A stretch of DNA of 64,000 nt from Candidatus Bruticola sp. (lineage in GTDB: Bacteria; Vulcanimicrobiota; Xenobia; Xenobiales; Xenobiaceae): assembly GCA_051874735.1 (NCBI GenBank), contig JBJEGD010000031.1:98681-162680 (forward strand), given 5' to 3'. A model generated the notes under the pieces. That model was not told where the DNA came from, did not search any database, and saw only the letters and a list, made by a program, of their open reading frames with translations. Position numbers and translations under genes: made by a program. Positions 30,126 to 59,965 of the stretch are shown one piece after another; position 1 is the first letter of the stretch, and each line of letters begins with the position of its first letter.

Positions 30126-30127
30126 GT

Positions 30128-30619: not shown

Positions 30620-30704
30620 TTATTTACTCCAAGTTAATGGACTTAATATGCCTTTTCATTTTATACTATAGGCAAGCGAGATGGAAGAGAGGTCGTGTAG
30701 TCAT

Positions 30705-41676: not shown

Positions 41677-42498
41677 CTACCACCTAGGTGGACCGCCAGG
41701 ACCGCCCGGGCCGTGATGGTGCGGACCGCCAGGACCGCCCGGACCATGGTGTGGATGGTGAGGACCATGGGGACCAGGGCCAAGACCAGGACTCCAAGGA
41801 CTGTGATGATGATCGGGGCCTGGAGGAGGAGGGAAGCCTCCGCGTGGAGGAGGCGGCATTCGGAACAGATCGCCATGACGGTGTCCGTGTGGAGGAGGTG
41901 GAGGTGTTGGGAAAGGAGTATAGAGGCTAGCTCTTACAGTTTCTTCTGCTGTCTGAGAAACGGCACTAGATACGGCTGCAGCTCCTAAACCAACGGCAGC
42001 ACCGGCTACAGCTGCCTTACCAACGTTCGAATTAAAGATGCGCTCGCGCTCTCCTGTAGCAGGGGTATTAGGCTGATTTTGTTGACCAGCCTGAGCTGCC
42101 CGTTTGGCCATTTGGTTATTTTGTATATCATTGCCAATTTTAGCACCTATACCGCCGCCCAAAATTGAACCAAGCATGCTGCCGCCCATCATGCCTAAAG
42201 GGCCGCCTAACTTCATACCGAGGTTAATACCGAGCAGACCGCCGATACCCTGACCTATAACAGAACCAGCATAACCGCCCATGCCAAAACTTGGCATAGT
42301 CGCAGGATTAGCTGCGCCATTTAAAGGAATGCTGCTATCGAGAATTGCGGCCATTATAGGAACGCCTACGACAGCACCGGTAAGACTAGACATGGCCAGA
42401 GCCGTCATGGGATTCATAACGGGGCCGAATACTGAACCCGGACCCATAGGCCCGCCAAAAGGACCAGGGCCTCCGAAGGGAATACCAGGAGTGAACAT
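41677..42498 (-). CDS. Glycine-zipper protein with His/Pro/Gly-rich C-terminal tail
   Basis: RBS GGAGG (42506-42510, minus strand); GxxxG ladders GGYAGSVIGQGIGGLLG and GMMGGSMLGSILGGGIG; tail GPHGPHHPHHGPGGPGGPHHHGPGGPGGPPRW. Confidence 0.75.
   Translation of the reverse strand: MFTPGIPFGGPGPFGGPMGPGSVFGPVMNPMTALAMSSLTGAVVGVPIMAAILDSSIPLNGAANPATMPSFGMGGYAGSVIGQGIGGLLGINLGMKLGGPLGMMGGSMLGSILGGGIGAKIGNDIQNNQMAKRAAQAGQQNQPNTPATGERERIFNSNVGKAAVAGAAVGLGAAAVSSAVSQTAEETVRASLYTPFPTPPPPPHGHRHGDLFRMPPPPRGGFPPPPGPDHHHSPWSPGLGPGPHGPHHPHHGPGGPGGPHHHGPGGPGGPPRW
41690..41742. repeat. 20-bp direct repeat encoding GPGGPGGP units
   Basis: GGACCGCCAGGACCGCCCGG at 41690-41709 and 41723-41742. Confidence 0.8.
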
Positions 42499-42728: not shown

Positions 42729-45700
42729 TTATAGAGACGACAAAGATACGCTGAAGTCTTTCAGCTCATAAATTATTTTGCCGTCTGTTTCTAAAATGCC
42801 GTTAGCTTTTATATAAGGATTATTCCCTTGGCCTATTTCAGTAATTTCTGCCCTTACTATAGTTTCTTGGTTCGCTTGGGTTACTTGACCTCGGTAGAGC
42901 CAGTGATGGGGGCTATCTAGGGTAATGGCTGAGAAAGTGTGGCTTTTTTGCAAATTGGGCCATTTTTTAAGAGCGATTATTTTGAGAAGCTGAATAAAAG
43001 CTTCTAATCCTAGCGATCCGGGCATAACCGGATCTTGGAAGAAGTGGGCCTTAAAGAACCACTCTTGAGGATCGATACGTTTTCGGCCTACAGCTGCTCC
43101 TAATCCTAATTTTCCTCCTTGAGGATACCAAGCATATTCATCCAGCATAAGTAGAGCTTTACCGGGTAAAGATAAAGAAGCGGTTCTATTGTCTTGATTG
43201 TCACTTGGGGTTAAAGGAGCTAGCACTGGCAGCTTTTCAAAGGGTACTTCCTGGGCAGGATACCATAAACGTTTTGAGGCGCCACGAACTCCCACCTGAT
43301 CGGCCAGAGCTTTTTCTGTAAAGAAACCAAAAGTAGTTTGTCCTTCATAAATGAGGCGTCCTTTTTGGCTCATATTCATGTCAAAATCTTGAATGATAAG
43401 GCCGCCAGCTTCTGAAGACTTAGTAAGGCGCACTCTAATGGTGACCGTTCCTGATTTAGGATGAAGTTCCTCATGCAGGATTGAGGTTCCGCCTAAATTG
43501 CGGTAGTGCAGATTTTCGCTGCTATGCTTAGAAGAACCAGCATAACTAGATACCCAACCGCATACTTGCAGAGCTATTTCGTTAAGGACACAGAAAGGCA
43601 TGCGTCCAGTATGTCCAGCTTTGAAATACCAAGCATTTTCAGGTATATCGTACTGAGCCTCTACCCAGCCTCCAGGTACGGTTTTAAGGAAAGGATGATC
43701 GGCACTGACAATGCGGCTGACAAATTGGTAAGGCGGTCCAGGCAATCTAGCTATAAATTTAGTATCAAACTCGGCGAACTCCGGTCCAAAGGCTAAAGAA
43801 GGTTTCCCTATGGCAAACTGCATAAACTGCTCTTCGTTAAATATAGCCTTTTTTATAGGATCGCCTAAGTGAACCGCTGGTGGCTGTCTGCTGCTCCAAA
43901 GTTCTTCTAACTTAGCTCCAGTGGTGCCAGTTAACTGCATGGAAATATTTTCAAAGCCTACAACTCTTTTATTATCAGCGTACATAATTGCGTCTGCAAT
44001 AACATAAGGGTGAGGATTATAGCCTATTTCCTTGATCTCTACCTGATAACGCACCGTCTTTGTTGTCTGTAGTACAGGACCGCGACATTTAAGTACGGCT
44101 TTGACTCCAATAACCGGTTCATAGGCTATCTGGTTTTTTTCTCCTACCCAGCCTAAGCGGGTTAACAGGAAACGTAGGGCGTGAGCGCAGCATTCGTACA
44201 TTAAGGTACCAGGCATAACCATATCGTCAACAAAGTGGCAAGTTAGGTACCAATCTTCAGGATGGACGTCAGCTTCAGCTATAACTTTACCCAGCCCCCA
44301 GCGTCCTCCCTGGGGATCACATTCGGGAATACGATGAATTAAGCGCAGCAAACCGGAAGGTAAGCTGATAGGTTGATGCAGTGGCAAACCGGCAAAATCC
44401 GCTCCGAAACAGGCTTCTAAATCGCCGCGGCGTAAGGCTTCAACTTGCTCAGGACTGTAGCTGCCAGGGCTGAGAGGTACTAAATATTTCATATTAGGAT
44501 CTCTGCGCCCCTGTTTAGGACGGAGACTGTCTTCAGTCAGTACTAAACCGCCGTTATTGCGGATTTCATTGTGAGTGAAGAAACCAGCACAACCGTCGCG
44601 CATAGTGAGGAAAGTTTGTCCGTTTATAGTTCCTTCATATTCGAAGAAAAATAACCAAGTATCCCCTTGGTTGATAAAACGTTTAATACGAATGTCATAA
44701 TGAATCGTTTCACCTGGCTGAGGGAGCCCGCGATGGAAAGTAACATTGGCATCTAAAAGGCGGTAGACTCTCTTGCCTTGAGCCTTAAAATCTATACCTA
44801 ACCAACTGCAGAGGAACAGGTCAGCTTGTCCCGCTTCTACTGAAATAAAGACCGGAGCACGTCCTCCATCTAGATACCACATGCCGGGAACGACGTCGTG
44901 TTCAGTTATAACACGCCCAGAGCCCAAAGAGAGAGGTTCACCTTCTACGGATATTATACGATCAACCAGCATGAGAGGTTCGGCTGGCAAGCGAACTCGC
45001 GTAGAATAATTATCAACGGGAGCGAATTTCTCTCCGAGAACATGTCCAATTTTGCCCACAGCAAATTCCAGGCAGGCTTGTCTGTCCATAAAAACTTGCT
45101 GATTGGCAGAAGCTAATGATGGCTTATTACCGCAAATATAACCGTCAGAAGCTGTAAACTCTACACCGTGCAATTTTGTTTTATAAGTAGCCTTATGGCC
45201 GGGGGACGTCTGAGGCGATACTACTCTTCCAGCGGAAGCTGCGGATGGAGCGTCTATTCTACTAAGAGAAGCTCCCTTTAAACTGTCAGGTAGAACTTCG
45301 CTATCTGTATTATGGCCAATACATTGCTGTTGATTAGCAATATCGTTTGCTTTTAAAGAGCTATGTAAAGTTTGATTAGTAAGAGCTTTAACCTGATTGG
45401 GCTGGTAAGCTAAGTCATAACAAGCCAAATTTTGAGTCAAAATACTTTGACGCTGCAGTAAATCAGCTATAGCCTTAGAGCTTTCTTTAACAAAGTCAAG
45501 CCACTTATTATGACTTTGTTGGGAGAGTTGTGCAGAAGTCAGTAAAAGTTTTTCAATATTTTCTAAAGGACTGTTAGCAATATCGATATTTTGAACTGCA
45601 GATGAAGTGACTTCATCATTAGTCAAAAGGCTTGGCAAATGAGCTTCAGCTGGAACTGCAGAAACAGAACTTAACTGATTATGTTCTATATGATTCATAG

Positions 45701-48700
45701 CTTTTTCGGTTATTTTACCATTATTATGCAAATTATCGGCCGCTTTTAAAGGTTTATGAATCGCCTGAGAAGCATCCTCTTCTGTGTTGGGCTGCTTATT
45801 AGGCAAAGAAGCAAACTCCAGTGACAACTGGGCCGCTTGGGGAGTTGATGATTTACAGCTAGCTGATTTTGTGGCTGTCGCTAAAATAGGGGGAGCGTTA
45901 TTCCGAATAATATTATTGAATTCATTCGGTTGGGCTTCTTGACAACTTAATTTAAAGCATAAAGGCGGATCAAAGGGGCGACGTCCTAAAGCAATTTTTA
46001 ATAAACGCTTTCCAACGGAGATAGTCTCTTGCTTGTCTTTAGGGAATAGACTGCTAAGATCGGGACGCAGCCCCTGACTGATAGCTCCAGCTAGCAGGCA
46101 CTCTAAAGATGATAACTCAGATTTACCTCTGTTGCTTAAACTTATGGCAAAATGAGGTTTATCAGCCAAGATATTATTAATCATGCGAGTACATGAGGCC
46201 CCCGGACCCATTTCTAAGAAAATGCGCACTCCGTCTTGCCAAGCTTGACGTATAGTTTTAGTGTAATCGAATCCGAAGCGACCGTGGGCTACAATAGAAT
46301 CGGCTATTTTTTCTGAAGTTAAATTATAAGAGCGGTGGTAATAGCCGCTATAAAAATCGATGCCTGGTGGTGGAGTACAAGGTAAATAATGCATATCCCA
46401 GTATTGTTGAGCCACAGGATCGAGGCAGTCACAATGAACGGTATCCACGCCACTAACAAAAATAGCTTTAGTTTTTAATTTAGTGCAAAGTTTACTGATA
46501 GCTTCGCGAGTGCCTCCCACGACACATTCGTTATCAGTATTAATAATAAGTAAGCGAACTTGAGAAATAGTGGCTATAGCTTCTTTTACCTGAGAAGCTG
46601 GAACGCGGATGACACCAGCCATCCATTCAAACTTGGCGCCAGAAGGAATATTCCAAGCCCTTCTAGCTGCCAGACATTTGCCTGAAAGCTGCTCTCGGAA
46701 TAAGTCGGAACCTTCCATGCGCTTGTACATAAGATCTCTTTCAGGCCAAGCTCTTAGAGCAAATAAAGCTGCCGACTCTCCTAAGCTGTAACCTATGGCC
46801 GCCTGAGGTTCTAAGCCTAAACTACGCACAGCATCTGTAGTCAGCATGGCAAAACTGACCTGGCTGAACATCATTTTATGAGTGTCGGAGGCTAACGTTT
46901 TGAAGGCGTCTCGTTGCCAATTGTCAGACCAATCTAAACGGTAAGGTTGGTTCCAACGCGCCATAAATTCGTCAGCCATATAAAGATTTTCTCGATCGAA
47001 GCGCTCCATTAACTGAGGGAAGTGCAGAGCTAATTCTCTGCCTAAACCTAAGAAATTCGCCCCTGATCCGGGATATACAAAAGCTGTCCGACCTTGCTGA
47101 GCTAAGGGGTTGGGACTGTAAAAAATGGAATGGTTAGCTAGAGGCTTGTCGGCATATTCTTCTAAATGCTTAATAGCAAGTTTCAAACGTATATGGAACT
47201 CATTCCAAGGCTCTTCAGTCGATAAATCTATGACAAAAGCCATGGCTAGCTTATGTTGCTGATTCTGTTGCTTGTGCCAATAAGAGCCTAATCTTATTAA
47301 ATTGTCGACTTCACATTGATCTTGATCAAGCAACTTTTCTGCTTCAGTTTGCAGCTGCTTCAGCTGTTGTTTTAATTGCTCAGCAGTTTCAGCATAAGAA
47401 GCAAATATTACCGAGTTAATTTTATCTAAAGTATGCTGATGAGCGTGTGAGGCAGAAGAATCCACTAACTGATCTTGTGAAGCTGTTTCAGCTACAGGAG
47501 CTTCCTCCAAGATGATAGTCGAGGTCTGGTGCGGGTAGGACGTACATATTACGGCTGCGCATCGAGAGCCGTCAGCGCGTCTGCGGAACCAGAATGAAGG
47601 CTTAGTGTGGACGCAAAAACGGGACCCTGTCCAGTCTTCTCCGTCTAAAGGCTTAATAAATCGAGGAGAAGCTGGCAAGATGTGGTGTTCTAAACTAAGA
47701 GCGGTTTTTAAAGTAGAAGCTAAAGCTGAAGCCGCTCCGCATTGGCCTATAACAGAACTTACAGAGGTGACTGATAAAGGTATATCCCCTTTATCGATAG
47801 TCCGCCTAATTTGCTGTAGGTTTTCACGATAACAGGGCTCAGTTAACAGAGAGCCGTTGCTAAATTCTAGATAACTTAGCTTCTCAGGCGCTGTACCTGC
47901 TTGAGCGCAGGCTTGTTCTAAGGCTAATTGCACAGAAGAAGGTTGAGCGGAATGGTTACCAGTTTCTGAAGCTTGGCCAAAACCTTTAAGCAAACAATAA
48001 ATATGGTCGCCGTCTCGACGAGCGTCGCTTAAACGTTTTAACACGAAACAACAGCAGCCTTCACCGTATCCTTCGGGAAGCTCGGCAAAATGGGAATGAG
48101 CCGCCCGTACGTCACCTTGCAGATCTATGGCACCAACTAACGCTAAATCTAATTTCCTATTAAGTAACGCTTGGCTGCCCAATTTTAAAGCTGTCAAGCC
48201 AGAAGATTCTTGCGATGAAACTGTAAAAGAACAGCCGCCGAACTGAAATTCGCGGGCGGCTCGGCTAGCTGCGATACTGCCGAGCGCTCCCATAGTGCGT
48301 GTTGCATCAAGAGGAGCTGAAATTTCATCTTGCAAATTCTTAAGCCAGTCTTCTTCTTGCTCTGAATTTAAATTGAGTAATTTAGCAAGTTCGTGAGCTT
48401 TCTTCTCTAAATGCCAGCGCAAAGTAAAATTAGTTGAATTTAAGTCTAGCGCAATACCTATAAAGGCAGCTGCGCGATGGCGGCGCTGGCGAAGGGGCTG
48501 TTTAGCATCAGCCATAGCTTGAGCTGCTGTGTACAAAAGCAGAGTTTGCTGAGGCAGAATATGGGGGATATCTGCCGGAGGTACGCGAAATTGGCCTGGA
48601 GTTACAGATATGTCTTTAATATAAGCTTGTTGAGTAGAAATCGGCGTATAGATACCTTGCCAGCGATCGTCAGGTAGCTCTTCTAAAGCGGAAAGGCCGT

Positions 48701-50222
48701 TAAAGACTGCGTCTTTAAATTTCTCTGTGCTATTTAAAGAACCAAAATGGCCAGCTAGGCCAATAACCGCTACAGCATCTAATTTATCTGAGTTAGCAGT
48801 TGAAAGGTTAGGGCAGGAATCTGCTGTTTTACTAGCTCTTGCTTCGGAAGGAAATGGAGCGGTGTACTCTTCTAAAATTATATGAGCGTTAATTCCGCCA
48901 AAGCCGAATCCGCTGACAGCTGCTCGGCGTGGACGTCCCTCAGGTTGGGGCCAAGGTAGTTCCTGATTTTCTATGCGGAAGCAGCTATCTGCCAAAGGTA
49001 GATTGGAACGTTGAAAATTAACTTGGGGAGTAATAATTTTATGCTGCATATTGAGCAGCACCCTAATAAGACCAGCCGCTCCGGCAGCCGTCAGCAAATG
49101 GCCGATCATAGATTTGACTGAGCGGAGCTGACAAACAGAACCTTGAGGAGCATTCTCCCAAAGGGTTTGTAGGCTATTGAATTCTATTCTGTCTCCCACT
49201 GGAGTGCCTGTGCCGTGGCACTCTATTAAATCTATATCCCAGGGGTTAAGTTTGCATACTTCATAAGCTTGGCGCAAGCTGCGCAGTTGCCCTTCGCTGG
49301 AGGGAGCAACTAAACTTCCTTCAATATCGTTGGACAGTCCAGTGCCTTTAATAACAGCATAAATTTTGTCTCCTTGGGCTTCAGCATCGGCAAGACGTTT
49401 CAAAACGACCAAACCACAGCCTTCGCCCACCATTAGACCATCGGCTTTGACGTCGAAAGGAGAGCATACTCCACTGGGAGATAGAGCTCTCAAAGCGGAA
49501 AAGCCCATCTGAGTATATAGACAGTCTGGCCGAGAAACTCCTCCGGCGATCATAGCTTCCGCTTGGCCACTGCGCAGCTCCTCACAGGCTAATTCAATAG
49601 CCACTAAAGAACTGGCGCAGGCGGCGTCTAGGGTATAGCCTCCCAAACCTAAGCCCAAAGAGTTAGCGATCAGCTGTGCCGGCAAGCCTACAGGAGAAGC
49701 GTTGATGGCCCTGACTTCAGAGCTAGCGGCGCCGTTGCTAATAAAAGATGGTTGGATAGAAAATTCAGCAGTGTTGGGATAAGTCTCCTGAAGTTTGCTG
49801 CGCAGACGTTCCGCAAAATCGCTGCCCAAAATATTTTCGCTCAGCTCTACAGTTGTATCGGTAGGAAGAGCTATAGCGGCCATGATAACTCCGGTCCGCT
49901 CTTTCTTGATAGCAGTATTTTGCACAGCTTGGCGAGCAGTATTTAAGCTTAAAACAAATACTGGATCAGTTCCGTTTGGCAGTCCCTCATCTTCCGGCGA
50001 GGGAAGGTTGTGCAGATAATAGCCGCGTGTACAGCGCAGGCCGTCCGCTTTAGGGATAGGACTCAAATGTTTGGCGTCATCTATAGGCCAGCGATTGGAA
50101 CTAGGATGTTCCGAAAGATCTTGGGCTTCTTGAAGGCGGCGCCAATATTCTTCAGCATTGTGTGCTCCGGGAAAGTTTAGTCCGATGCCGACAACGGCTA
50201 TATCTGTATTTTGTTTTGCCAT
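42729..50222 (-). CDS. PUFA synthase subunit, PfaB/C fusion (Pfa3-like): KS-CLF-AT-FabA-type DH domains
   Basis: KS DAACASS/HGTGT/GHLL; CLF lacking the Cys (SSQESSG); AT GYSLG; FabA-type HFVDDMVMPG and HFFQDPVMPG, each preceded by a pseudo-DH. Confidence 0.9.
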   Translation of the reverse strand: MAKQNTDIAVVGIGLNFPGAHNAEEYWRRLQEAQDLSEHPSSNRWPIDDAKHLSPIPKADGLRCTRGYYLHNLPSPEDEGLPNGTDPVFVLSLNTARQAVQNTAIKKERTGVIMAAIALPTDTTVELSENILGSDFAERLRSKLQETYPNTAEFSIQPSFISNGAASSEVRAINASPVGLPAQLIANSLGLGLGGYTLDAACASSLVAIELACEELRSGQAEAMIAGGVSRPDCLYTQMGFSALRALSPSGVCSPFDVKADGLMVGEGCGLVVLKRLADAEAQGDKIYAVIKGTGLSNDIEGSLVAPSSEGQLRSLRQAYEVCKLNPWDIDLIECHGTGTPVGDRIEFNSLQTLWENAPQGSVCQLRSVKSMIGHLLTAAGAAGLIRVLLNMQHKIITPQVNFQRSNLPLADSCFRIENQELPWPQPEGRPRRAAVSGFGFGGINAHIILEEYTAPFPSEARASKTADSCPNLSTANSDKLDAVAVIGLAGHFGSLNSTEKFKDAVFNGLSALEELPDDRWQGIYTPISTQQAYIKDISVTPGQFRVPPADIPHILPQQTLLLYTAAQAMADAKQPLRQRRHRAAAFIGIALDLNSTNFTLRWHLEKKAHELAKLLNLNSEQEEDWLKNLQDEISAPLDATRTMGALGSIAASRAAREFQFGGCSFTVSSQESSGLTALKLGSQALLNRKLDLALVGAIDLQGDVRAAHSHFAELPEGYGEGCCCFVLKRLSDARRDGDHIYCLLKGFGQASETGNHSAQPSSVQLALEQACAQAGTAPEKLSYLEFSNGSLLTEPCYRENLQQIRRTIDKGDIPLSVTSVSSVIGQCGAASALASTLKTALSLEHHILPASPRFIKPLDGEDWTGSRFCVHTKPSFWFRRRADGSRCAAVICTSYPHQTSTIILEEAPVAETASQDQLVDSSASHAHQHTLDKINSVIFASYAETAEQLKQQLKQLQTEAEKLLDQDQCEVDNLIRLGSYWHKQQNQQHKLAMAFVIDLSTEEPWNEFHIRLKLAIKHLEEYADKPLANHSIFYSPNPLAQQGRTAFVYPGSGANFLGLGRELALHFPQLMERFDRENLYMADEFMARWNQPYRLDWSDNWQRDAFKTLASDTHKMMFSQVSFAMLTTDAVRSLGLEPQAAIGYSLGESAALFALRAWPERDLMYKRMEGSDLFREQLSGKCLAARRAWNIPSGAKFEWMAGVIRVPASQVKEAIATISQVRLLIINTDNECVVGGTREAISKLCTKLKTKAIFVSGVDTVHCDCLDPVAQQYWDMHYLPCTPPPGIDFYSGYYHRSYNLTSEKIADSIVAHGRFGFDYTKTIRQAWQDGVRIFLEMGPGASCTRMINNILADKPHFAISLSNRGKSELSSLECLLAGAISQGLRPDLSSLFPKDKQETISVGKRLLKIALGRRPFDPPLCFKLSCQEAQPNEFNNIIRNNAPPILATATKSASCKSSTPQAAQLSLEFASLPNKQPNTEEDASQAIHKPLKAADNLHNNGKITEKAMNHIEHNQLSSVSAVPAEAHLPSLLTNDEVTSSAVQNIDIANSPLENIEKLLLTSAQLSQQSHNKWLDFVKESSKAIADLLQRQSILTQNLACYDLAYQPNQVKALTNQTLHSSLKANDIANQQQCIGHNTDSEVLPDSLKGASLSRIDAPSAASAGRVVSPQTSPGHKATYKTKLHGVEFTASDGYICGNKPSLASANQQVFMDRQACLEFAVGKIGHVLGEKFAPVDNYSTRVRLPAEPLMLVDRIISVEGEPLSLGSGRVITEHDVVPGMWYLDGGRAPVFISVEAGQADLFLCSWLGIDFKAQGKRVYRLLDANVTFHRGLPQPGETIHYDIRIKRFINQGDTWLFFFEYEGTINGQTFLTMRDGCAGFFTHNEIRNNGGLVLTEDSLRPKQGRRDPNMKYLVPLSPGSYSPEQVEALRRGDLEACFGADFAGLPLHQPISLPSGLLRLIHRIPECDPQGGRWGLGKVIAEADVHPEDWYLTCHFVDDMVMPGTLMYECCAHALRFLLTRLGWVGEKNQIAYEPVIGVKAVLKCRGPVLQTTKTVRYQVEIKEIGYNPHPYVIADAIMYADNKRVVGFENISMQLTGTTGAKLEELWSSRQPPAVHLGDPIKKAIFNEEQFMQFAIGKPSLAFGPEFAEFDTKFIARLPGPPYQFVSRIVSADHPFLKTVPGGWVEAQYDIPENAWYFKAGHTGRMPFCVLNEIALQVCGWVSSYAGSSKHSSENLHYRNLGGTSILHEELHPKSGTVTIRVRLTKSSEAGGLIIQDFDMNMSQKGRLIYEGQTTFGFFTEKALADQVGVRGASKRLWYPAQEVPFEKLPVLAPLTPSDNQDNRTASLSLPGKALLMLDEYAWYPQGGKLGLGAAVGRKRIDPQEWFFKAHFFQDPVMPGSLGLEAFIQLLKIIALKKWPNLQKSHTFSAITLDSPHHWLYRGQVTQANQETIVRAEITEIGQGNNPYIKANGILETDGKIIYELKDFSVSLSSL

Positions 50223-50260
50223 ATTTAATAAACCCGTGTTGATAAGCTTAAAACTGTGTG

Positions 50261-53200
50261 TTAAAAACAGTTGCTGCGGAATGATTCAGCCAAGGAAGAA
50301 CTCATAATCCAATGGACGTCACGCCATTCAGCTAACACTTCGCCTTTGTTATCGGTGAGGAATATATCTCCGCGCATTTCATTAGTATCTGCTTCCTTGG
50401 GATAGAGAAGAATATGGGCCTTCTCAGGAAACTTATCTACATATTGACGATAGCTGCCACCGAACATAGGCAAAGAACACAGACCGCGCTGAGCGCCGCT
50501 CCATAACAGTCCACTTTGTAAAGCACAGTCGAGGAACAGCGGATGAGTAATAGGAGTCTCTTGGGGATGATTCATTAATTTGACGCCGCTGTCAGTCACA
50601 TCGGCAGCTAAAACATGCTGTCCGCAAGCCCTAACTTTATCTATGCCGCGCAGTTTGGGACCATGGAAAAGATATTTATTATAAGCTTCTGGCATAGTGC
50701 AAGGATAGCCGTTTTCTTCGATTGGGTTAAGACGGCTGCTTGGTTTATGAGGTAGGCCAGGCTTCAGAGCCAGTACAACTGTACCCTCTGCGCATTTGTG
50801 GGGAGTTGAATTTGGCTTGCGATGATTTATCACAAAGGAAACGCGCAGTTCATCTCTTATTGGCTCTGCTCGTCTAATAACTATATCGATTTCTGAATCG
50901 GCAATATGCTTATCTGGCTGGCCTTGCTCTCGTCCTAATGGTAAAGTAACAGGTCTCAGTACTCTGAGGTTGTCACAGCCCAAAAAGCGGTACTGAGGAA
51001 AATACTTGCGGCAAGCTTGAGCCGCCAGTTCCACCATTAAAGCGGCTGGCATAACAGAGTGACCGCCTAAAATATGATCCTCTAAAAGAGGATAATATTC
51101 TGAATTGAGAGTGCGGTTGTAAGGATCGCAACGATCAATTCCAGAACAATCATCATATGGTGCGGCGGTTTCGTCCGAAGATGCGCGATTGGGAAGCCGG
51201 ACGGGCTTTGGGCCCGTCAGCGCAAAAGGGCGCTGAGAATCGTCTCCTTTCTCTTCCTCGTTACTGTCTAGTCCCAATGATTTAGCTAAGCGGCTCACTT
51301 CCTCTGCAGGCTGCTTTTCTTGATTTTCACTAGAATTGTCTTCGCTAGGTACGTTGAAACCATCTCCCATGACGAGCTCGCAGGCCTGATCGTGACCTAA
51401 CAAAACTTCTGCCGTTAAAGCGCGTGCTCCGCGTCCTCGTTCTATAACTTCAACGCCCAATTGCTCAAATTTGCGTTTAAGACTTTCATCTACCATACCG
51501 CCTTCCCACGGTCCCCAGCCCATGGCTTCAAAACGGGTTTGAGGATAGAGAGCACTGGCTGTATAAGTAAATTTGTTCATTACTTCATTAGCCATAGCGT
51601 AATCTGCTTGACCAGGGCGGCCGAACCGCGCAGAAACAGAGGAAAAAGTAACCACAAACTGCAGCGGGTCATCTTGTAAGGCTTGCATAAAGTTATAAAG
51701 GCCGTTTACTTTAGTGTCGAAGACCATACTAAATTGGTCATCAGTTTTATCACATATGTATCTATCGGCCAAAACGCCGGCTCCGTGTATAAAGCCTGTG
51801 ATGGGGCCTAAGCGCTTGCGAATATCAGCGACAATTTGATTAATTAAGCTGTCATCGCGCACATCAAGGGAAATATACTCCGCCTGTGAGCCGCAGGCTC
51901 GGATATCGTTGATGTTTTGGGAAATCTCCCGATTAACTAAAATGCGGCGACATTCACTCTCTAGAAGCTTAGGAGAGATACTCTTACCGCTCTGTTTAGC
52001 CTGTTGGTAAAGTAAAGCTTTTAAATCGCGGGCCGTTTGGGCTGATTTAGTTTGAGTCCATTCAGGTACAGGAATAGGGGATCTGCCTATTAAAACAAAG
52101 TTGAACTTACCATGTTTAGCTAAAAGTTTAGCACAATCGGCGGTTACGCCTCTAGCTCCGCCCGTTACTATAATTGTCGAACCTAGCTTAGGTAAATTCT
52201 CCCCGTTAAAGCCAAGTTTCTCTTCACGCAATACTGGAATGCGGCGTACGCCACGTCGATCTATGCCTATTTCGTTACTGCCATCAATTAGCAATTCCGC
52301 AATAATCTCAGCTGCTATACGATCGGGATTGTCATCGACGCAAAAATCGAAAGAGCGGCTGCGCAGATTCGGATATTCTTGAGCTACTACTTTGGCTAAT
52401 CCGTGCAGTCCAGCTTCAATAGGATTGCTGGCTTCATCAAAAGTTCCGAAGCGTCCGTCCATGCGGGTGACTGTTAAAAACAGGCCAGGAACCTGATTTA
52501 TCTGTTTCCAAATTTGGCACTGCTGGCGTACCAGCTTGAAGCAGTCTTTGAGGGCTTCTTCTGCTGCACTGCGCTTAAAGAAAAAGTCGCCTACTTCATA
52601 GAGGGGGAAGCTAGGCATAATTACTATTAAACCAGCGAAGTGGTTAGCCATACTTAAATGCTGGTCGGTTAGAGGTTGATCTTTACTTATAAGGCAAGCT
52701 TGCAAACCGAGCTGCTCCATGGCGGAACAGAGAGCCGGAGCAATATAACCGTCATCAGTGATGACATAAAGCCCTTGAGCGTCAATATCAACAGTTTTGT
52801 TAGGTGCCGGCGATTCTTCATAGTAAAGTTTACGCCGTTTGAGCATTTGGCCATTAGGAGCCAAAGCTTCGGCCAAAGCTTCGGCAGTGTTTTTAACTGC
52901 TGAATTTGAGGGCGGATTTTCATCATTAGCCGCTGCAGCGGCTGCGGCGGACGAGTGGTCTTCAGCCACTTGTTCCGCGGCAGCCGGATGGTCGCCTTCA
53001 GTCTGATTACTGCTGCTATTTAAAGCAGCAGAAGTTTCTTTAGGAACCTGTTCCGCAGCTAATGGTAAATTAGACTCAGAACTAGCTTCATTTATGGCCT
53101 CGGTTCCTTTATCGTTATTTTTTTTTTCTTTCCCGCCGTTTGTTGGCTGGGGGCCATTTTCCGGAGGGGTAGGATGATTATTAGGGCTCAGACGGTTGAG

Positions 53201-56200
53201 AATATCGCGCACTGTGTGCAGAGAGCCTATCTCATCGGGCCCTATAGCTGAAGCCGCCGGAATGATCTTTTGGACAGCAGCTAAGATTTCGACCCTTTTT
53301 ATAGAGTCGATACCTAAATCGTTTTCCAAATCCATATCCAGATTTAGCGTTTCTAATGGATAGCCAGTCATATCGGCTACAACCTTCAGTACGGTATCTT
53401 CATTGCTAAATGCTGAGTCGGCAGCTATTTTAGCAACAGTAACCTCTGAAGTTACCTGAGAGTTATTACCCAAACGGTTGATAATATCGCGCAGAGTGTG
53501 TAAAGAACCGATTTCCTCAGGACTGATGGTAGCAGCTGAAGGCAGAGATTTCTGGACAGTAGCCAGAATTTCTACCCTTTTAATAGAGTCGATGCCCAAG
53601 TCGCTCTCTAGATCCATATCGGTATTTAGTGTCTCTACCGGATAGCCAGTCATATCAGATACAATCTTAATGATAACTTCTTCCGCAGGAACAGACTTGG
53701 CGCCATTTTGTTCTTGGATAGCGTCATTCGGCTGAGCACCTGTTGTTTTGTTAGAAGTGAGTCTATCTAAAATTTGACGCAAAGTGTGCAGAGAACCGAT
53801 TTCGTCTGGGCTGATGGCTGTTGTGCCGGACAGCTGTTTTTGGATGGCAGCTAGAATTTCTACTCTTTTAATCGAGTCGATACCCAAGTCATTTTCCAAA
53901 TCCATATCGAGGTTTAAAGTTTCAACAGGATAACCTGTCGTTTCAGCCACTACACTCAGAAGTAGATTTTCGGGATCTTGAACTTTAGCGTCATTCTGAG
54001 CAGAAGCCTCGGCGATAACCTTCTTTTCGGAAACACTGCTCTGGGAAGCGTTTTCGGCAAGGCTGTTAGATTTTAAATTATTCAGCTTATCGGCAATTTG
54101 GCGAAGAGTTTGCAAAGAGCCTATTTCATCGGGAGCTATAACTTTAGCTTGAGGGAATCTTTTCTGTACGGCTGCTATAATTTCAACCCGTTTAATAGAG
54201 TCAATGCCCAGATCGGTCTCTAAATTCATGTCTAAGTTGATCATATCCGCCGGATAACCGGTCATTTCGGCTACTGTGCCGATAATAGCGGCAGTCAAAT
54301 CGCCTGCCTGCTCAGTCTGGGGGGCGGCAGGCATTTTCAATTTCATTTCAGTTACAGCAGTAGCTGGAGCTTCTGCGTTTACTTCTGAAATAGGTTTAGC
54401 TAAAGGCTTGGCTGCTGAAAAGGCAGACATAGCTGAAGATATAGGCACTGAAACTAAGGGCTCAGGCTCAGCAGGGGGTTGGAAATAGGGACGATGCTCC
54501 GCCAAAGGAATGCTGGCCGTCTGGACAGTAGCCAAGTTAGAAACGGTTGTTAAATTGGCGCTATCTTGGCTGAAAGGTTGTGAACACACCTTACTGATAG
54601 GTTCTGCTCCTAAGCTTAATTGCGCTAAAGTTTGCTGAGAGGCAATAATACTCTGCAGAGTCTGTTGAATCTGCACTTGACTATCTAAAAAGCGCAAATG
54701 AGCATTGGCTGTTTGCTGTTGCAGAGTTTGCATAGCTTCCAGGCCAATTTGTATGGTGCGAAAAGCCTGACTCAGCATAGAACTATCAGTTTTTAAAGTC
54801 GTGCTAGTACCAAAAGAGCTGAGATGAGTATTTTGAACGGCAGCTGCTTTTAGGTCTGTCGCCGAAGCTGGAGAAGTGTAACTTTGCGATGTAGGCTCAG
54901 TTAAAGGAGAGGATACGAATATAGGTTGGGGCTGAGACGCGTAGGAAGATTGAACCGGTTTAGTAACTTCATCGGTTGTTGATGGCGTACAGCGAGGGGC
55001 GGCCTGAACTGCGGACAATCCCGGGGTGGAGACTTCCTTGGGGGTAGGAGCCTCTTTATCAATGTGAATGTCGTCAGGCTTTTGGGCAGCCGGAACTGAA
55101 TCAAAAGCGACTTCTCCCAATTCTACAGGAGCAGACGGATTGACCACTGGATTATCGCTGATAAATTTGAGGGGCTGATAGCCTTCCACCGGTTGAATGG
55201 GATCACAGCTAGGAGCTGGAGCATGTTTGCCAGGAGTACGGTAGTTAGCTCCGCAGATAGGCACAATCATGCGTTTATGGCGTGGTTCGCTGATATTTTC
55301 TTCCCATTTAGCAAGATCTACTGGGTAGCCTAAAGCGGACAGTTGGGCTAAAACTTGGGCTAAGCAGACTAACTCTCCGCCTCCGCGGCGTCCGTCGGTA
55401 GCGAGCATGTAGTGAGCTTTACTTCCCAAAATCTTTTTTACTAAACCGGTTAAAACCGTTTTCGGTCCGACTTCAATAAAAGTGCGGAAGCCATCAGCGT
55501 ACATGTTTTCAATAATATCAATGAAACGCACCGAGCTGACCAACTGTTCTCCCAGAGTCCGGCGGAGCTGTTCAATATCGTCTGTATAAACTTTACCAGT
55601 GACATCAGCATAGACTGGAATCTTAGGAGCTTGCAGTTTAATTTTGCTCAAAGCCTCGCAGAAAGGCTCTTTGGCAGTAGCCATAAGAGAACTATGGAAA
55701 GCGGCCGATACTTGAAGACGCTTAGCAGTAATGCGGCGCGATTTACAAATTTCTTCTGCCTGGCTGACGGCTTCTTTAGAGCCGGAGATAACACCCTGAG
55801 AGGGATGATTGCGGTTAGCCAGTACCAGATCTCCACCAACTTCTTGTACTATTTCTTCAATGGTTGAAAGAGGAGCGGAAACTGCTGACATAGCGCCACG
55901 TCCTCCGTCTCCCTTAGCCATAAGGGAACCGCGCAGAGCTGAGAGGGCGAAGAGATCCGATTGAGTGTAAACACCGGCTTGTTGAAGGGCTACCAGCTCT
56001 CCGTAAGAGTGGCCGGCCATAGCTTGAGGTAACACTCCAAAGCCGCGCAGAATAGAGGCTGCTGCTGATTCGGCAGCTCCTAAGCAAGGCTGGGCTGCGC
56101 GGGTATCAGTGATAGCCTTAGTCTGGGCTGTCTCTTCTCCTTCAGCAAAAGTTTTTATGGGGAAGATAAGCTGAGCTGGATCCTGGCTATCCTCCAAAGT

Positions 56201-58021
56201 GTTATGAGCTGTTTCTAAAGCCGCCAACGCTTCAGGGAAAATACTGAAAAATTCGCGATCCATACCGACATACTGGCTGCCTTGACCGGGGAAGAGGAAG
56301 GCTATTTTGCCAGGTTCAGAAGAGGCGTCGCCGTAGAAAGAACCACTGGGAAGCGAGCCAGACGCATCTTTATTTTGCTCCAAAGCCTCGGCTAATTCGT
56401 TAAGTTTAGACGAGTAATCATTAGGTCCACAGACCAGTAGGGTACGAACCGCTGCATCTGCCCGGAAATTACGGCGCGACAAATTGGCCTTATAGGCGGC
56501 TTCATAAAATTCGCAAGCGGCGGCGCTGCGGATATCAGCAATTAAAGAACTGCGCTCTGCAGAACTAAAAGCCCAAATCTGCACAGAACCGTCCCAGGCT
56601 GGAACGGTGCGCTGCCGATTGTATTCTTCTAAAACAACGTGGAAATTGCTGCCTCCAAAGCCAAAAGACGAGACGCCGCTGCGTCTGACTTCACCTTTCT
56701 TGACAACCCAAGGTTTAGTTTGAGTGCTTATATAGAAAGGAGTCTCTTCCAGACCTAATTTAGGATTGGGACGGCTAACGTGTAAAGTCGGCAGAATAAC
56801 TTTGTGGAAAAGAGATAAGCTGGCTTTGCAGAGACTGGCGGCTCCAGCCGAAGCTTTAGTATGACCAATTTGTGATTTGACAGTACCTAAGGCGCAGCTG
56901 CTCTTTTTATCTACGTTTTTAAAAACGCTCTTCAAAGCGTTAAATTCCACGACATCGCCTACTTTTGTACCGGTGCCGTGAGCCTCAATTAGACCTATGT
57001 CAGCGGGGGTAATTCCCGCTTCTTTATAGGCTCTTTCTAAAGCTAAACTTTGACCAGGAGCACTGGGAGCGTAAATAGCTCCGGAATTTCCGTCTGAAGA
57101 AGCCCCCAGTCCTTTTATGACTGCATAAATTCGATCTCCGTCGCGTTCGGCGTCAGCTAAACGCTTAAGTACTAAAACACCTATGCCTTCTCCTAAAAGA
57201 GTACCGTCGCAATCTTCGGAAAAAGGAGCTATATGTCCGGAGTCAGACAGAGCTGGAGTCTTGCTGAAGCAAGTGAACATAAATACATCATTGAAGGTAT
57301 CTGTGCCGCCAGTTAGCACCATATCGGCATTACCTGAGCGAAGTTCAGAGAGAGCCAGATGGACCGCTGCCAGAGAACTAGCACAGGCTGCATCGACGGC
57401 GCAGTTAGCTCCGTGTAAGTCAAGGCGATTAGCTATGCGCCCTGCTACTACGTTGCCCAGCAAGCCTGGAAATGAATTTTCCTGCCAAGATACATAAGAA
57501 TCAGCAATACTGGCAACTACTTTTTCAGCTGTAGCTTTATCAACTCCGGCTTCAGCTAAAGCCTTGCGCCAGCGAGGATGGCCTAAGCGAGCTCCCAGAG
57601 GAATAACCATTTCCAAGGCGCCCGTTACGCCTAAAATAACGCTGGTCGTATCCTTAGGAACGGCTTTGCCCCCCTGACCGTAACCAGCATCTTCCAAAGC
57701 GGCCTTGGCGCCAGCTAAACCGAGAAGTTGAGAAGTATCTGTAGCTTCTAAAACATTGGGCGGAATGTTAAATTCTGTGGGATCGAAGGGGTAAGGTTCC
57801 AAGAATCCGCCTACTTTGGCGTAACAGCGATCGGGACTGTTGTGATCGCCGTCGTACAAATCGTTTACCGACCAATGAGTAGCAGGAACCGGGCCTATAC
57901 AATCAGTTCCGGTGCGCAAAATACGCCAAAAACTCTGGCGGCTGTCGGCTTTAGGAAAAAGGCACCCCATGCCGATAATAGCAATGGGCAGATTATGATT
58001 ATTCTTGTAATTAGAAGACAC
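50261..58021 (-). CDS. pfaA: PUFA synthase subunit PfaA (Pfa2-like): KS-MAT-4xACP-KR-DH
   Basis: KS DAACASS/HGTGT/GHTK; MAT GHSYG and SAAFHS; four LGIDSIKRVEI ACPs; KR GGARGVT and YAMAN; DH HILGGHSVMP. Start reassigned to GTG 58021 (RBS CAGGAG, TAGTG overlap with the pfaD stop). Confidence 0.92.
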   Translation of the reverse strand: MSSNYKNNHNLPIAIIGMGCLFPKADSRQSFWRILRTGTDCIGPVPATHWSVNDLYDGDHNSPDRCYAKVGGFLEPYPFDPTEFNIPPNVLEATDTSQLLGLAGAKAALEDAGYGQGGKAVPKDTTSVILGVTGALEMVIPLGARLGHPRWRKALAEAGVDKATAEKVVASIADSYVSWQENSFPGLLGNVVAGRIANRLDLHGANCAVDAACASSLAAVHLALSELRSGNADMVLTGGTDTFNDVFMFTCFSKTPALSDSGHIAPFSEDCDGTLLGEGIGVLVLKRLADAERDGDRIYAVIKGLGASSDGNSGAIYAPSAPGQSLALERAYKEAGITPADIGLIEAHGTGTKVGDVVEFNALKSVFKNVDKKSSCALGTVKSQIGHTKASAGAASLCKASLSLFHKVILPTLHVSRPNPKLGLEETPFYISTQTKPWVVKKGEVRRSGVSSFGFGGSNFHVVLEEYNRQRTVPAWDGSVQIWAFSSAERSSLIADIRSAAACEFYEAAYKANLSRRNFRADAAVRTLLVCGPNDYSSKLNELAEALEQNKDASGSLPSGSFYGDASSEPGKIAFLFPGQGSQYVGMDREFFSIFPEALAALETAHNTLEDSQDPAQLIFPIKTFAEGEETAQTKAITDTRAAQPCLGAAESAAASILRGFGVLPQAMAGHSYGELVALQQAGVYTQSDLFALSALRGSLMAKGDGGRGAMSAVSAPLSTIEEIVQEVGGDLVLANRNHPSQGVISGSKEAVSQAEEICKSRRITAKRLQVSAAFHSSLMATAKEPFCEALSKIKLQAPKIPVYADVTGKVYTDDIEQLRRTLGEQLVSSVRFIDIIENMYADGFRTFIEVGPKTVLTGLVKKILGSKAHYMLATDGRRGGGELVCLAQVLAQLSALGYPVDLAKWEENISEPRHKRMIVPICGANYRTPGKHAPAPSCDPIQPVEGYQPLKFISDNPVVNPSAPVELGEVAFDSVPAAQKPDDIHIDKEAPTPKEVSTPGLSAVQAAPRCTPSTTDEVTKPVQSSYASQPQPIFVSSPLTEPTSQSYTSPASATDLKAAAVQNTHLSSFGTSTTLKTDSSMLSQAFRTIQIGLEAMQTLQQQTANAHLRFLDSQVQIQQTLQSIIASQQTLAQLSLGAEPISKVCSQPFSQDSANLTTVSNLATVQTASIPLAEHRPYFQPPAEPEPLVSVPISSAMSAFSAAKPLAKPISEVNAEAPATAVTEMKLKMPAAPQTEQAGDLTAAIIGTVAEMTGYPADMINLDMNLETDLGIDSIKRVEIIAAVQKRFPQAKVIAPDEIGSLQTLRQIADKLNNLKSNSLAENASQSSVSEKKVIAEASAQNDAKVQDPENLLLSVVAETTGYPVETLNLDMDLENDLGIDSIKRVEILAAIQKQLSGTTAISPDEIGSLHTLRQILDRLTSNKTTGAQPNDAIQEQNGAKSVPAEEVIIKIVSDMTGYPVETLNTDMDLESDLGIDSIKRVEILATVQKSLPSAATISPEEIGSLHTLRDIINRLGNNSQVTSEVTVAKIAADSAFSNEDTVLKVVADMTGYPLETLNLDMDLENDLGIDSIKRVEILAAVQKIIPAASAIGPDEIGSLHTVRDILNRLSPNNHPTPPENGPQPTNGGKEKKNNDKGTEAINEASSESNLPLAAEQVPKETSAALNSSSNQTEGDHPAAAEQVAEDHSSAAAAAAANDENPPSNSAVKNTAEALAEALAPNGQMLKRRKLYYEESPAPNKTVDIDAQGLYVITDDGYIAPALCSAMEQLGLQACLISKDQPLTDQHLSMANHFAGLIVIMPSFPLYEVGDFFFKRSAAEEALKDCFKLVRQQCQIWKQINQVPGLFLTVTRMDGRFGTFDEASNPIEAGLHGLAKVVAQEYPNLRSRSFDFCVDDNPDRIAAEIIAELLIDGSNEIGIDRRGVRRIPVLREEKLGFNGENLPKLGSTIIVTGGARGVTADCAKLLAKHGKFNFVLIGRSPIPVPEWTQTKSAQTARDLKALLYQQAKQSGKSISPKLLESECRRILVNREISQNINDIRACGSQAEYISLDVRDDSLINQIVADIRKRLGPITGFIHGAGVLADRYICDKTDDQFSMVFDTKVNGLYNFMQALQDDPLQFVVTFSSVSARFGRPGQADYAMANEVMNKFTYTASALYPQTRFEAMGWGPWEGGMVDESLKRKFEQLGVEVIERGRGARALTAEVLLGHDQACELVMGDGFNVPSEDNSSENQEKQPAEEVSRLAKSLGLDSNEEEKGDDSQRPFALTGPKPVRLPNRASSDETAAPYDDCSGIDRCDPYNRTLNSEYYPLLEDHILGGHSVMPAALMVELAAQACRKYFPQYRFLGCDNLRVLRPVTLPLGREQGQPDKHIADSEIDIVIRRAEPIRDELRVSFVINHRKPNSTPHKCAEGTVVLALKPGLPHKPSSRLNPIEENGYPCTMPEAYNKYLFHGPKLRGIDKVRACGQHVLAADVTDSGVKLMNHPQETPITHPLFLDCALQSGLLWSGAQRGLCSLPMFGGSYRQYVDKFPEKAHILLYPKEADTNEMRGDIFLTDNKGEVLAEWRDVHWIMSSSLAESFRSNCF
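53190..54300 (-). repeat. Four tandem ACP-coding repeats within pfaA (approximate bounds)
   Basis: Four copies of TGYP...DM.LE.DLGIDSIKRVEI.A..QK...I.P.EIGSL.T.R. Confidence 0.9.
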
Positions 58022-59670
58022 TATAACGACTCCTGTAACAGCGAGGCTAATTCTTGGATAGGAAGGGGAGCAAAACGCTTCCACTGGGCTGGGAGCTCGA
58101 CTCCCTGATTGCAAAGAAGCGAGGTTCTGGTCAGGATGCAAGCCCCAGTCATAATATTAAGTGCTGCCAAATCTGCGTGGCGCTCTTTTACGTTTTCCAT
58201 AAATGTTCCTTTGCACCACTCATTAAAGCTGCCCATAGATGGACCGCACCAGATTTGGTAATCGGCTCGGCGATCGGGAAGACCGGCATTGGCCCAGCGT
58301 GAAGCTTGCCCCAAGTATGATCTAAAAACTAACGCCATCTTGTGCTTAGGGTCTAGTTCTGCTTTAGTAATTTGCCGCGGGTCTCGTTTAGCAAAGAAAG
58401 CTTTCGTATTTTGCCAAGCTTCTTCAAAGCTGGAGCGCAGCATAGTCTTTTCTATTTGCTCCCTAGTTGAAGGCGGCACTTCGCTAAATGAATTGTAAGT
58501 GCGGTAAACTTCATAGAGACGTTTCGCCCTTACTGGGAACATCGTTCCCCATTTGAGCACTTGGACATTTACACCCATTTCGAACATGTCGGCAGCTGGG
58601 GCCATAGTGACATCGGCCGGAGAGGCCTTAGCCAGCATCTCCCGTACTACCTGACTGGAACCAGATTCCTGACAGGCCTGATTTATAGAACCAGTCATTA
58701 CGTAGGCTGCTCCCATAGCAAAAGCGGCGGCTGCCGCCTGAGGAGAGGCAATACCCCCGGCTGCGCCTACTGGCACTTGCCATCCCCATTTTTCTTGCAT
58801 TCTGTCTCGTAAATCGAGCATAGATGGAAGTAGTCCGAAAGCGGGACGATTATCTGTGTGTCCTCCGCTGTCAGCCTCAGCAGTTATAGCTGAGGCGGGG
58901 GGCAGCAGATAGGCTGCGGCTGCTTCTTCTTGGGTCAGCAGTCCCTGATCAGCTAAAGCAGAAATCATTTCTTGAGGTGGAGGAGCCAGCAGTTTCGCGG
59001 CTACTTCTAAGCGTGATACTTTTGCAAAAACATGATGCGGAGCGCTGATTGTGCCGTCGGGCAAACGCTTTATCCCGCTGTATCGGTAATGAAGCAGCGC
59101 CGGAGTTAAGCCTAAAAAGGCTGAAGCTTCAATACAACTGACTTTATTGTCTATAAAAAGCTGAGCAGTTTCTTTTTCCAGTTGCTGATCAGAAGGACTG
59201 TGAATTAAATTGAAACCATGCGGCAGAGAGCCAAGTTTTTGTTTGAGAGAATGAATGTGAGCTTCTGCTTCTTTTAAACTGAGTCCGGCAGAGCCGAAAA
59301 AGCCCATCATGCCAGCTTTAGCCATAGCTTCAACTAAATTCTCGGAGGCTATGCCGTTAGCCATAGAACCACTTAGACAGGCATAGCGCAGTGAATAAGT
59401 GCGGCGGAATGATTCTTGGCCCAGTTCACTGGGAGGCAGTGCTGGAGCTAAGGCTAATAAAGGCAGGCTTCCTGCGGCAAATGAAGCAGGAAACTGGCAT
59501 ATCCCGTCTTCGAAGAGGGTAAAGGGCAGTTCTTGATCTTTCCATATCGAAGGGGAGGCAACTGCGAAAACAGGTTGTTTCAAATTGCGCAGCACAGCAA
59601 CTGGGTCTGGGCGTTTGGCAGTCGTCTGGGGAGTCCAGCTGCCCGTAACTTTTATGCAGGAATTTGCCAT
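58021..59670 (-). CDS. pfaD: PUFA synthase enoyl reductase PfaD (FabK-like)
   Basis: GSMANGIAS, NLIHSP, EASAF, AKVSRLEVA, EADSGGHTDNRP, MAPAADMFEMGV.VQVLK, DYQIWCGPSMG. Confidence 0.95.
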   Translation of the reverse strand: MANSCIKVTGSWTPQTTAKRPDPVAVLRNLKQPVFAVASPSIWKDQELPFTLFEDGICQFPASFAAGSLPLLALAPALPPSELGQESFRRTYSLRYACLSGSMANGIASENLVEAMAKAGMMGFFGSAGLSLKEAEAHIHSLKQKLGSLPHGFNLIHSPSDQQLEKETAQLFIDNKVSCIEASAFLGLTPALLHYRYSGIKRLPDGTISAPHHVFAKVSRLEVAAKLLAPPPQEMISALADQGLLTQEEAAAAYLLPPASAITAEADSGGHTDNRPAFGLLPSMLDLRDRMQEKWGWQVPVGAAGGIASPQAAAAAFAMGAAYVMTGSINQACQESGSSQVVREMLAKASPADVTMAPAADMFEMGVNVQVLKWGTMFPVRAKRLYEVYRTYNSFSEVPPSTREQIEKTMLRSSFEEAWQNTKAFFAKRDPRQITKAELDPKHKMALVFRSYLGQASRWANAGLPDRRADYQIWCGPSMGSFNEWCKGTFMENVKERHADLAALNIMTGACILTRTSLLCNQGVELPAQWKRFAPLPIQELASLLQESL

Positions 59671-59965
59671 ATTAATATATTTTATGTCCTTTTATCCGCT
59701 CTAAACAAAATGCGGTGGAAATTGTTCTTTAAACAACCGTATTTGGCTGTGATCTTAACTTAAGAACAGCTTTGCAATTTCTCTGATTCTCAGATAAAGC
59801 CACGGCTTTTCCATTCTTAGTCCATATAATTTACTTAAGTTTTGCCCTACTGTCAAATATCTATTAATATTGGAATTAGTCTGTATCTTGCGCTGTCTTA
59901 GAGGATAGTAAAGCCGATCTGGTTGGGAGCAGGAATCATCCCTGATTAAGTGCAAAAATACCACC

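Follow-up and report, generated by a model that had tools for sequence, protein, structure and literature searches.

The 64-kb window studied here, the whole stretch of DNA that was analysed (64,000 nucleotides (nt) of the Candidatus Bruticola sp. contig JBJEGD010000031.1), encodes a complete three-gene cluster, pfaD-pfaA-pfaBC, of the type that makes polyunsaturated fatty acids (PUFAs). The cluster is a lineage-wide trait of the class Xenobia and not a recent arrival. Together with the olefin genes oleA-oleB-oleC-oleD and a phosphopantetheinyl transferase (PPTase) gene it forms a module that is a near-universal trait of this one class of the Eremiobacterota. The Pfa enzymes probably supply a polyunsaturated acyl chain for condensation by the Ole enzymes, and the end product would be a very long polyunsaturated hydrocarbon (a polyolefin); we hold this with moderate confidence, by analogy with characterised systems. 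A preliminary description of the stretch had been made from its letters and a list of open reading frames (ORFs) alone, and it was followed up here by profile, synteny, tree and literature comparisons.

The ORF listing contained three long minus-strand frames at 58021-59670, 50261-58141 and 42729-50222. PfaD matched TIGR02814 with 587.5 bits (cut-off 449.25) and PfaA matched TIGR02813 with 1470.9 bits (cut-off 1010.1). The second frame as listed opens with a TTG at 58141, inside pfaD. This start was rejected in favour of the GTG at 58021-58019, which has an AGGAG 8 nt on its 5' side, overlaps the pfaD stop codon TAG (58023-58021) by one base (TAGTG) and gives an N-terminus that agrees with the PfaA starts in relatives. 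The same three observations confirm the translational coupling of pfaD and pfaA that had been proposed. The gap between the pfaA stop and the pfaBC start is 38 nt. A promoter-like site upstream of pfaD is a weak candidate, since the consensus scan returned 29 sites where 24.6 were expected in shuffles.

Pfam profiles found on PfaA a ketosynthase (KS), Acyl_transf_1, four PP-binding stretches, a ketoreductase (KR) and PS-DH. In PfaBC the motif DAACASS occurs once only, at residue 199, and the second KS-type unit, the chain-length factor (CLF), is without it. HGTGT and GHxxxA were found in both KS domains, and every catalytic motif that was checked is intact. The four FabA-type hot-dog units of PfaBC scored 26, 110, 25 and 114 bits, which gives the order pseudo-dehydratase, dehydratase (DH), pseudo-dehydratase, dehydratase. 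No match to AGPAT (PF01553) was found in PfaBC, which stops 10 residues past the last FabA match, and there is no acyltransferase gene of the PlsC/AGPAT kind within the cluster. The profile matches and the motif check thus bear out the architecture first read from the letters, an enoyl reductase (ER), then KS-MAT-4xACP-KR-DH (MAT, malonyl-CoA:ACP transacylase; ACP, acyl carrier protein), then KS-CLF-AT-pseudoDH-DH-pseudoDH-DH (AT, acyltransferase), with its motifs intact.

Of 41 relatives, ranging from the same genus to the same class, 38 encode PfaD, and the three genomes without it are 64-72% complete. Within the genus it is present in all 10 genomes, the window's own genome (G000) counted. 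The pfaA gene comes directly after pfaD in the loci of nine sampled relatives, and full-length Pfa3 (PfaBC) proteins of relatives show 80, 70, 69 and 68% identity at 100% coverage. Among the matches listed, the closest Pfa3 is from Candidatus Bruticola sp. (80% over the full length) and the closest PfaD loci are from bacterium UBP9_UBA4705 (79%) and a goat-rumen metagenome-assembled genome (MAG; 59%), in agreement with the non-myxobacterial host that had been suspected. In the phylum as a whole PfaD scored above its cut-off in 46 of 151 genomes, mostly Xenobia with a few other families, and in the sampled genomes of the largest family neither PfaD (0/71) nor OleA (0/71) was found.

The descent of the cluster was followed with PfaD, the only protein treed, in a tree of 89 rows made by a quick method. 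The window's PfaD groups with those of UBA4705 and the goat-rumen MAG (99, starred), and the remaining Xenobia form a second clade (96, starred). The two clades adjoin in a region of poor resolution, where Phycisphaerae, an Acidobacteria MAG and Desulfobacterales are placed as well. An approximately unbiased (AU) test was run under LG+G4 on 32 rows, comprising all Xenobia rows except the duplicate L018 and 20 representatives picked by eye from the 89-row tree. With all 12 Xenobia rows as one clade, a group defined by genome kinship and named only after the 89-row tree had been seen, p-AU was 0.499 and the constrained tree was better by 0.89 log-likelihood units; a single origin within Xenobia is not rejected. 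The duplicate row, L018 (CAZYPN010000006.1), is titled 'uncultured Burkholderiales bacterium', and its PfaD core does not differ from that of G030, a genome ranked in the window's own order (Xenobiales); the taxonomy in the title is probably wrong.

The preliminary description had named a host lineage already known for this cluster type as something that would speak against it. The genomes of the lineage do carry the cluster as a rule, but in the searchable literature, outside which lie supplements and the description of Xenobia by Ji et al. 2021, neither pfa nor ole was found to be reported for this phylum. PMC10308959, in the passages covered, makes no link between the phylum and PUFA synthases.

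The oleA-oleB-oleC-oleD genes are adjacent and co-directional on another contig of the same genome (C5, L096:4793-9457, minus strand). OleA scored 390 bits (cut-off 285) against NF006720, which we take, from the place of the gene in the ole array, to be the OleA model. OleB is a haloalkane-dehalogenase-like alpha/beta hydrolase, and OleC scored 628 bits (cut-off 478) against NF006754. Both the gene order and the families are those expected of the OleABCD head-to-head olefin pathway, while the models specific for OleC and OleD stay below their cut-offs. The OleA model exceeded its cut-off in 35 of the 41 relatives, whereas all 14 control genomes stayed below it, and the identity of OleA to the proteins of Shewanella (35%), Citrifermentans and Singulisphaera is 35-36%. 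One Sfp/HetI-type PPTase is encoded in the genome, a protein of 251 residues with 57.5 bits to PF01648 (cut-off 25), beside fabI on contig C26 (L097:7995-8750). Its best NCBIfam match was HetI with 67.5 bits against a cut-off of 370, and it is therefore not assignable to the PfaE subtype.

In our own tabulation of the 151 genomes from the phylum, the co-occurrence of PfaD and OleA was counted with E <= 1e-60 as the threshold. Both proteins were found in 43 genomes, PfaD only in 5, OleA only in 4 and neither in 99, which is to be read as a pattern and not as a statistic because related genomes are not independent. The genomes with PfaD only are 71, 75, 78, 90 and 97% complete and those with OleA only 65, 69, 72 and 93%. 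In the phylum-mate G069 and in Citrifermentans bremense R1 the genes pfaD-pfaA-pfaBC-oleA-B-C-D-PPTase form one array, with the domain order seen in the window.

In the scheme of Shulse and Allen (PMC3098273) a layout of this kind falls under types I/K, those with a pfaBC fusion. In their type I pfa-like cluster (Shulse and Allen 2011), known from Geobacter, Pelobacter, Desulfuromonas and Gemmata, pfaD comes first and is followed by pfaA and a pfaBC fusion with KS-CLF-AT-DH2, as here, and its occurrence is linked to an obligately anaerobic way of life (PMC3098273); Bruticola is apparently anaerobic too. C. bremense R1 shares the domain order and also has ole genes and an Sfp-type PPTase in its genome. 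It has five ACPs where Bruticola has four, and the domain identities between the two are 29-62%. Bruticola differs from the array of the G. bemidjiensis type in that its ole and PPTase genes are on other contigs and its host belongs to another phylum. Its PfaD does not group with those of the Geobacteraceae, although the published types were defined partly by the phylogeny of the PfaA KS and it was PfaD that was treed here.

The product of the three genes is an iterative type I fatty acid synthase/polyketide synthase (FAS/PKS) of the Pfa ('secondary lipid') kind, whose probable steps can be proposed from its family. The single Sfp/HetI-type PPTase, encoded on another contig, would prime the four ACPs, and the MAT of PfaA would load malonyl units. 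The chain would be lengthened by the PfaA KS and the KS-CLF pair of PfaBC. The KR, the PKS-type DH and the FabA-type dehydratase/isomerases would, with the PfaD ER, set the methylene-interrupted cis-polyene pattern without oxygen. OleA would then take the ACP-bound polyunsaturated chain, by analogy a 16:4-like intermediate. The trait appears to be old and conserved in the class Xenobia, and to have been kept by the animal-gut genus Candidatus Bruticola with its reduced genome of about 2.4 Mb.

The polyolefin is put first because the PPTase and the ole genes are present in the genome, because PfaD and OleA co-occur, because the arrays of G069 and C. bremense join the genes, and because the published C31:9 hydrocarbon supports such a route. 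Geobacter bemidjiensis, in which pfaD,A,B,C-oleABCD-pfaE lie in tandem, produces hentriacontanonaene, the C31:9 hydrocarbon (PMC4882568). Type I clusters were proposed by Shulse and Allen to supply olefin precursors (PMC3098273). In the model of Allemann and co-workers OleA takes 16:4n-3 from the PfaA ACPs, and Shewanella oneidensis MR-1 is listed as negative for eicosapentaenoic acid (EPA) and positive for the hydrocarbon (PMC6463001). The marine gammaproteobacterial pfaABCDE genes (Shewanella, Photobacterium, Moritella), which are accompanied by oleABCD, encode the same catalytic domains as here, and there the hand-off from Pfa to Ole yields C31:9 (PMC6463001). Their order, A-B-C-D with a separate PfaB, as seen at a Shewanella locus (L079), differs from that of Bruticola, where pfaD is the first gene and the AT is part of the PfaBC fusion.

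Several points weigh against a hand-off from Pfa to Ole in Bruticola. The pfa, ole and PPTase genes are on three separate contigs of this genome. The NCBIfam models specific for OleC and OleD score under their cut-offs for the Bruticola genes, with 525 and 473 bits for the olefin beta-lactone synthetase models (cut-offs 900 and 850), 414 bits for OleD against NF042422 (cut-off 580) and 366 bits against the other OleD model (cut-off likewise 580). The counts for PfaD and OleA overstate the link between the two, as kin genomes were counted. One genome that is 97% complete (G037) encodes PfaD and has no OleA-type match, and another that is 93% complete (G109) encodes OleA and has no PfaD. In other bacteria the Ole enzymes draw on ordinary acyl chains from FAS II, and this genome encodes FabH and FabI. 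In the tree, the PfaD clade of the window is apart from the Geobacteraceae, whose product is known and whose PfaD lies in the other half. Sequence alone gives neither the length of the chain nor its number of double bonds.

As a product, the polyene lipid of the preliminary description is plausible. Ranked second after the Pfa-to-Ole polyolefin, and rather unlikely in our view, is that the cell makes a long-chain PUFA, similar to EPA, docosahexaenoic acid or arachidonic acid, which a free-standing PlsC-type acyltransferase places into the membrane phospholipids, alone or in addition, so that Ole has no part or a side part. The domain set is that of PUFA synthases, and the AT of PfaBC is PfaB-like, PfaB being reported to act as terminal acyltransferase and to determine which PUFA is made (PMC12895367). 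A PlsC-type acyltransferase is encoded in the window at 14563-15411 (TIGR00530, 112 bits, cut-off 103) and a weaker one near ole, and Shewanella strains can produce both EPA and the hydrocarbon (PMC6463001). Against this, PfaBC carries no AGPAT and the cluster no acyltransferase gene, PfaD and OleA show tight co-occurrence within the phylum, with their genes joined in one array in G069, and G. bemidjiensis with its array is reported for C31:9, its other metabolites being called largely unknown (PMC4882568). Some other secondary lipid, for example a long chain that is saturated or hydroxylated, such as heterocyst glycolipids contain, or a starter from which the type III PKS of the genome would build an alkylresorcinol-like phenolic lipid, is improbable. 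Pfa-like clusters do make such lipids in cyanobacteria and Azotobacter (PMC3098273), and a DpgA-like type III PKS (L095:7558-8637; NF042429, 409.5 bits, cut-off 425) is encoded beside an enoyl-CoA hydratase, but it is unlinked to the pfa cluster, and the two FabA-type dehydratase/isomerases with intact histidine motifs and the PfaD ER make up a PUFA-type set. This enoyl-CoA hydratase-family gene and the PKS gene after it (contig C35, L095:6788-8637) may themselves be a small aromatic or phenolic-lipid pathway.

A recent horizontal gain from myxobacteria, or a chimeric contig, is very improbable. The order with pfaD first and the AT in Pfa3 resembles that of Aetherobacter (PMC4882568), the guanine-cytosine (GC) content of the cluster is 0.465 against 0.434 for the genome, and a starred set of 39 rows in the PfaD tree contains the window's clade and five Myxococcota rows. 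A clade of four Myxococcota rows (100, starred), however, leaves out the window's PfaD, the conservation of PfaD up to class level and in the whole genus argues for descent within the lineage, and the Xenobia rows as one clade were not rejected. Synteny with the nearest species covers the three genes upstream of pfaD, which show 58-84% identity. With this synteny and a GC content near that of the genome, a chimeric contig, which the preliminary description had named as a possible objection, is unlikely. The published myxobacterial pfa1-pfa2-pfa3 clusters (Aetherobacter, Sorangium; type L) agree with the window in the order ER, KS-MAT-ACPn-KR-DH, KS-CLF-AT-DH-DH, in the pfaD homologue at the 5' end and the AT inside pfa3, and in a PPTase encoded elsewhere (PMC4882568). 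A C-terminal AGPAT on pfa3 is the most characteristic myxobacterial feature according to a review (PMC4882568), and Bruticola Pfa3 is without it; with the exclusion of its PfaD from the Myxococcota clade, this sets the cluster apart from type L (PMC3098273) and leaves the supposed myxobacterial affinity unsupported.

Gene order was compared in a PfaD scan of one genome per prokaryotic species, in which at least 601 stretches matched, at least 575 of them encoding PfaD relatives, and the best 80 were kept. In 69 of these 80 loci pfaD is followed by pfaA on the same strand, and in 38 of the 69 the KS-CLF of the third gene was reached inside the 10-kb flank. Four of the other loci have less than 600 nt downstream, three have 0.7-3.3 kb downstream with no match, and four are ordered differently (Shewanella A-B-C-D, SAR324 A-BC-D and two Anaerolineae). 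The 69 loci span Planctomycetota, Desulfobacterales, Geobacterales, Myxococcota, Elusimicrobiota, Acidobacteriota and others. The pfaD-first order is therefore the commonest one among the best loci and not specifically myxobacterial, and together with an AT in pfa3 it is not diagnostic of type L. Proteins that match this PfaBC in length and Pfam domains are also common, with 5622 matches at E <= 0.001 among 7993 candidates scored. Of the reported myxobacterial-order cluster in a non-myxobacterial host, the complete and intact cluster and the host have stood, whereas the order has turned out to be shared by many phyla.

The host genome is 2.47 Mb at 92% completeness, and relatives of the same order have 5-9.5 Mb. 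The NCBI lineage of Candidatus Bruticola is Vulcanimicrobiota; Candidatus Xenobia; Xenobiales; Xenobiaceae. Searches of this 92%-complete genome for heme-copper oxidase (COX1), cytochrome bd and fatty-acid desaturase gave no match. The organism is uncultured, and the missing oxidases and desaturase fit a host-associated anaerobe, though the genome is incomplete; an uncultured or host-associated anaerobe had been considered as a possibility in the preliminary description. No tRNA or Rfam match was found within the window, and among sequencing runs sharing the window's words one DNA run (share 0.08) and no RNA run was listed.

Table 1. Features of the pfa cluster in the window
Feature	Position	Strand	Evidence
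pfaD, FMN-type trans-acting enoyl reductase, 549 residues	58021..59670	-	TIGR02814, Pfam NMO + FabD_helical_ins
pfaA-like gene, 2586 residues from GTG 58021-58019, KS-MAT-4xACP-KR-DH	50261..58021	-	TIGR02813, Shine-Dalgarno site, motifs
PfaA KS and C-terminal extension	56513..57988	-	PF00109, PF02801, PF16197; DAACASS, HGTGT, GHTKAS
PfaA malonyl-CoA:ACP transacylase	55418..56299	-	PF00698 124.6 bits; GHSYG
Four tandem ACPs	53192..54313	-	PF00550, 4 stretches; 4x GIDS
PfaA KR	51494..52177	-	PF08659 118 bits; TGGARG
PfaA PKS-type DH	50288..51118	-	PF21089, PF14765; HILGGHSVMP
pfaBC fusion (pfa3-like), 2497 residues, KS-CLF-AT-pseudoDH-DH-pseudoDH-DH, without AGPAT	42729..50222	-	Pfam/TIGRFAM matches
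PfaBC KS	48768..50207	-	PF00109, PF02801, PF16197; DAACASS at residue 199
PfaBC chain-length factor, KS-like without active-site cysteine motif	47667..48776	-	PF00109 89 bits, PF02801 39 bits on residues 470-1000
PfaB-like acyltransferase	46140..47081	-	TIGR02816 82.9 bits (below cut-off 144); PF00698; GYSLG
Pseudo-DH 1, degenerate hot-dog fold	44607..44990	-	PF07977 26 bits
FabA-type DH 1	43956..44363	-	PF07977 110 bits; HFVDDMVMPG
Pseudo-DH 2	43341..43745	-	PF07977 25 bits
FabA-type DH 2	42762..43169	-	PF07977 114 bits; HFFQDPVMPG
Promoter-like site TTGACA-17-TAAATT, about 160 nt upstream of pfaD	59828..59856	-	consensus scan only

The genes on both sides of the pfa genes are outside the cluster. 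Downstream of pfaBC, at 41677-42498 on the minus strand, a low-complexity protein of 273 residues rich in glycine, proline and histidine is encoded, which has no family match; its N-terminal half is glycine-rich and hydrophobic and its tail is rich in proline and histidine. Divergent from pfaD, at 59966-60811 on the plus strand, is an ORF of 281 residues that also has no family match. The nearest species has it at the corresponding position (75% identity), and it could be a regulator or an unrelated neighbour. Elsewhere in the window, a protein of 354 residues with an ADP-ribosyltransferase exoenzyme domain (PF03496, 71 bits) is encoded at 28044-29108 (plus strand), and its gene adjoins genes for proteins with an N-terminal-methylation (pilin-like) motif at 29433-31289. 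At 6090-9974 (plus strand) a serine/threonine protein kinase is fused to a very long array of tetratricopeptide repeats in a protein of 1294 residues.

Taken together, the cluster is of a known and very widespread kind, is the rule in this lineage and shows no new enzyme architecture or mechanism. What is modestly new is the presence of pfa throughout the class Xenobia of the Eremiobacterota and its retention, with ole, in reduced animal-gut genomes, from which we argue that its role is unrelated to cold. It is quite possible, and we propose it tentatively, that an apparently anaerobic gut lineage, whose genome is about threefold smaller than the 7-9 Mb of its relatives in soil, has retained pfa and ole genes amounting to about 22 kb and makes a C31:9-type hydrocarbon at body temperature that serves something other than cold adaptation. 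If so, the compound may have a role, for example, in protection against oxygen or in membrane organisation, and the gut would contain a previously unnoticed microbial polyene. The prediction for Candidatus Xenobia and Bruticola is a polyunsaturated hydrocarbon made by Pfa and Ole, which could serve as a lipid biomarker for the group. In conclusion, the view of these polyenes as a cold adaptation would be weakened, and a role linked to the anaerobic way of life, as suggested by Shulse and Allen (PMC3098273), would be supported.

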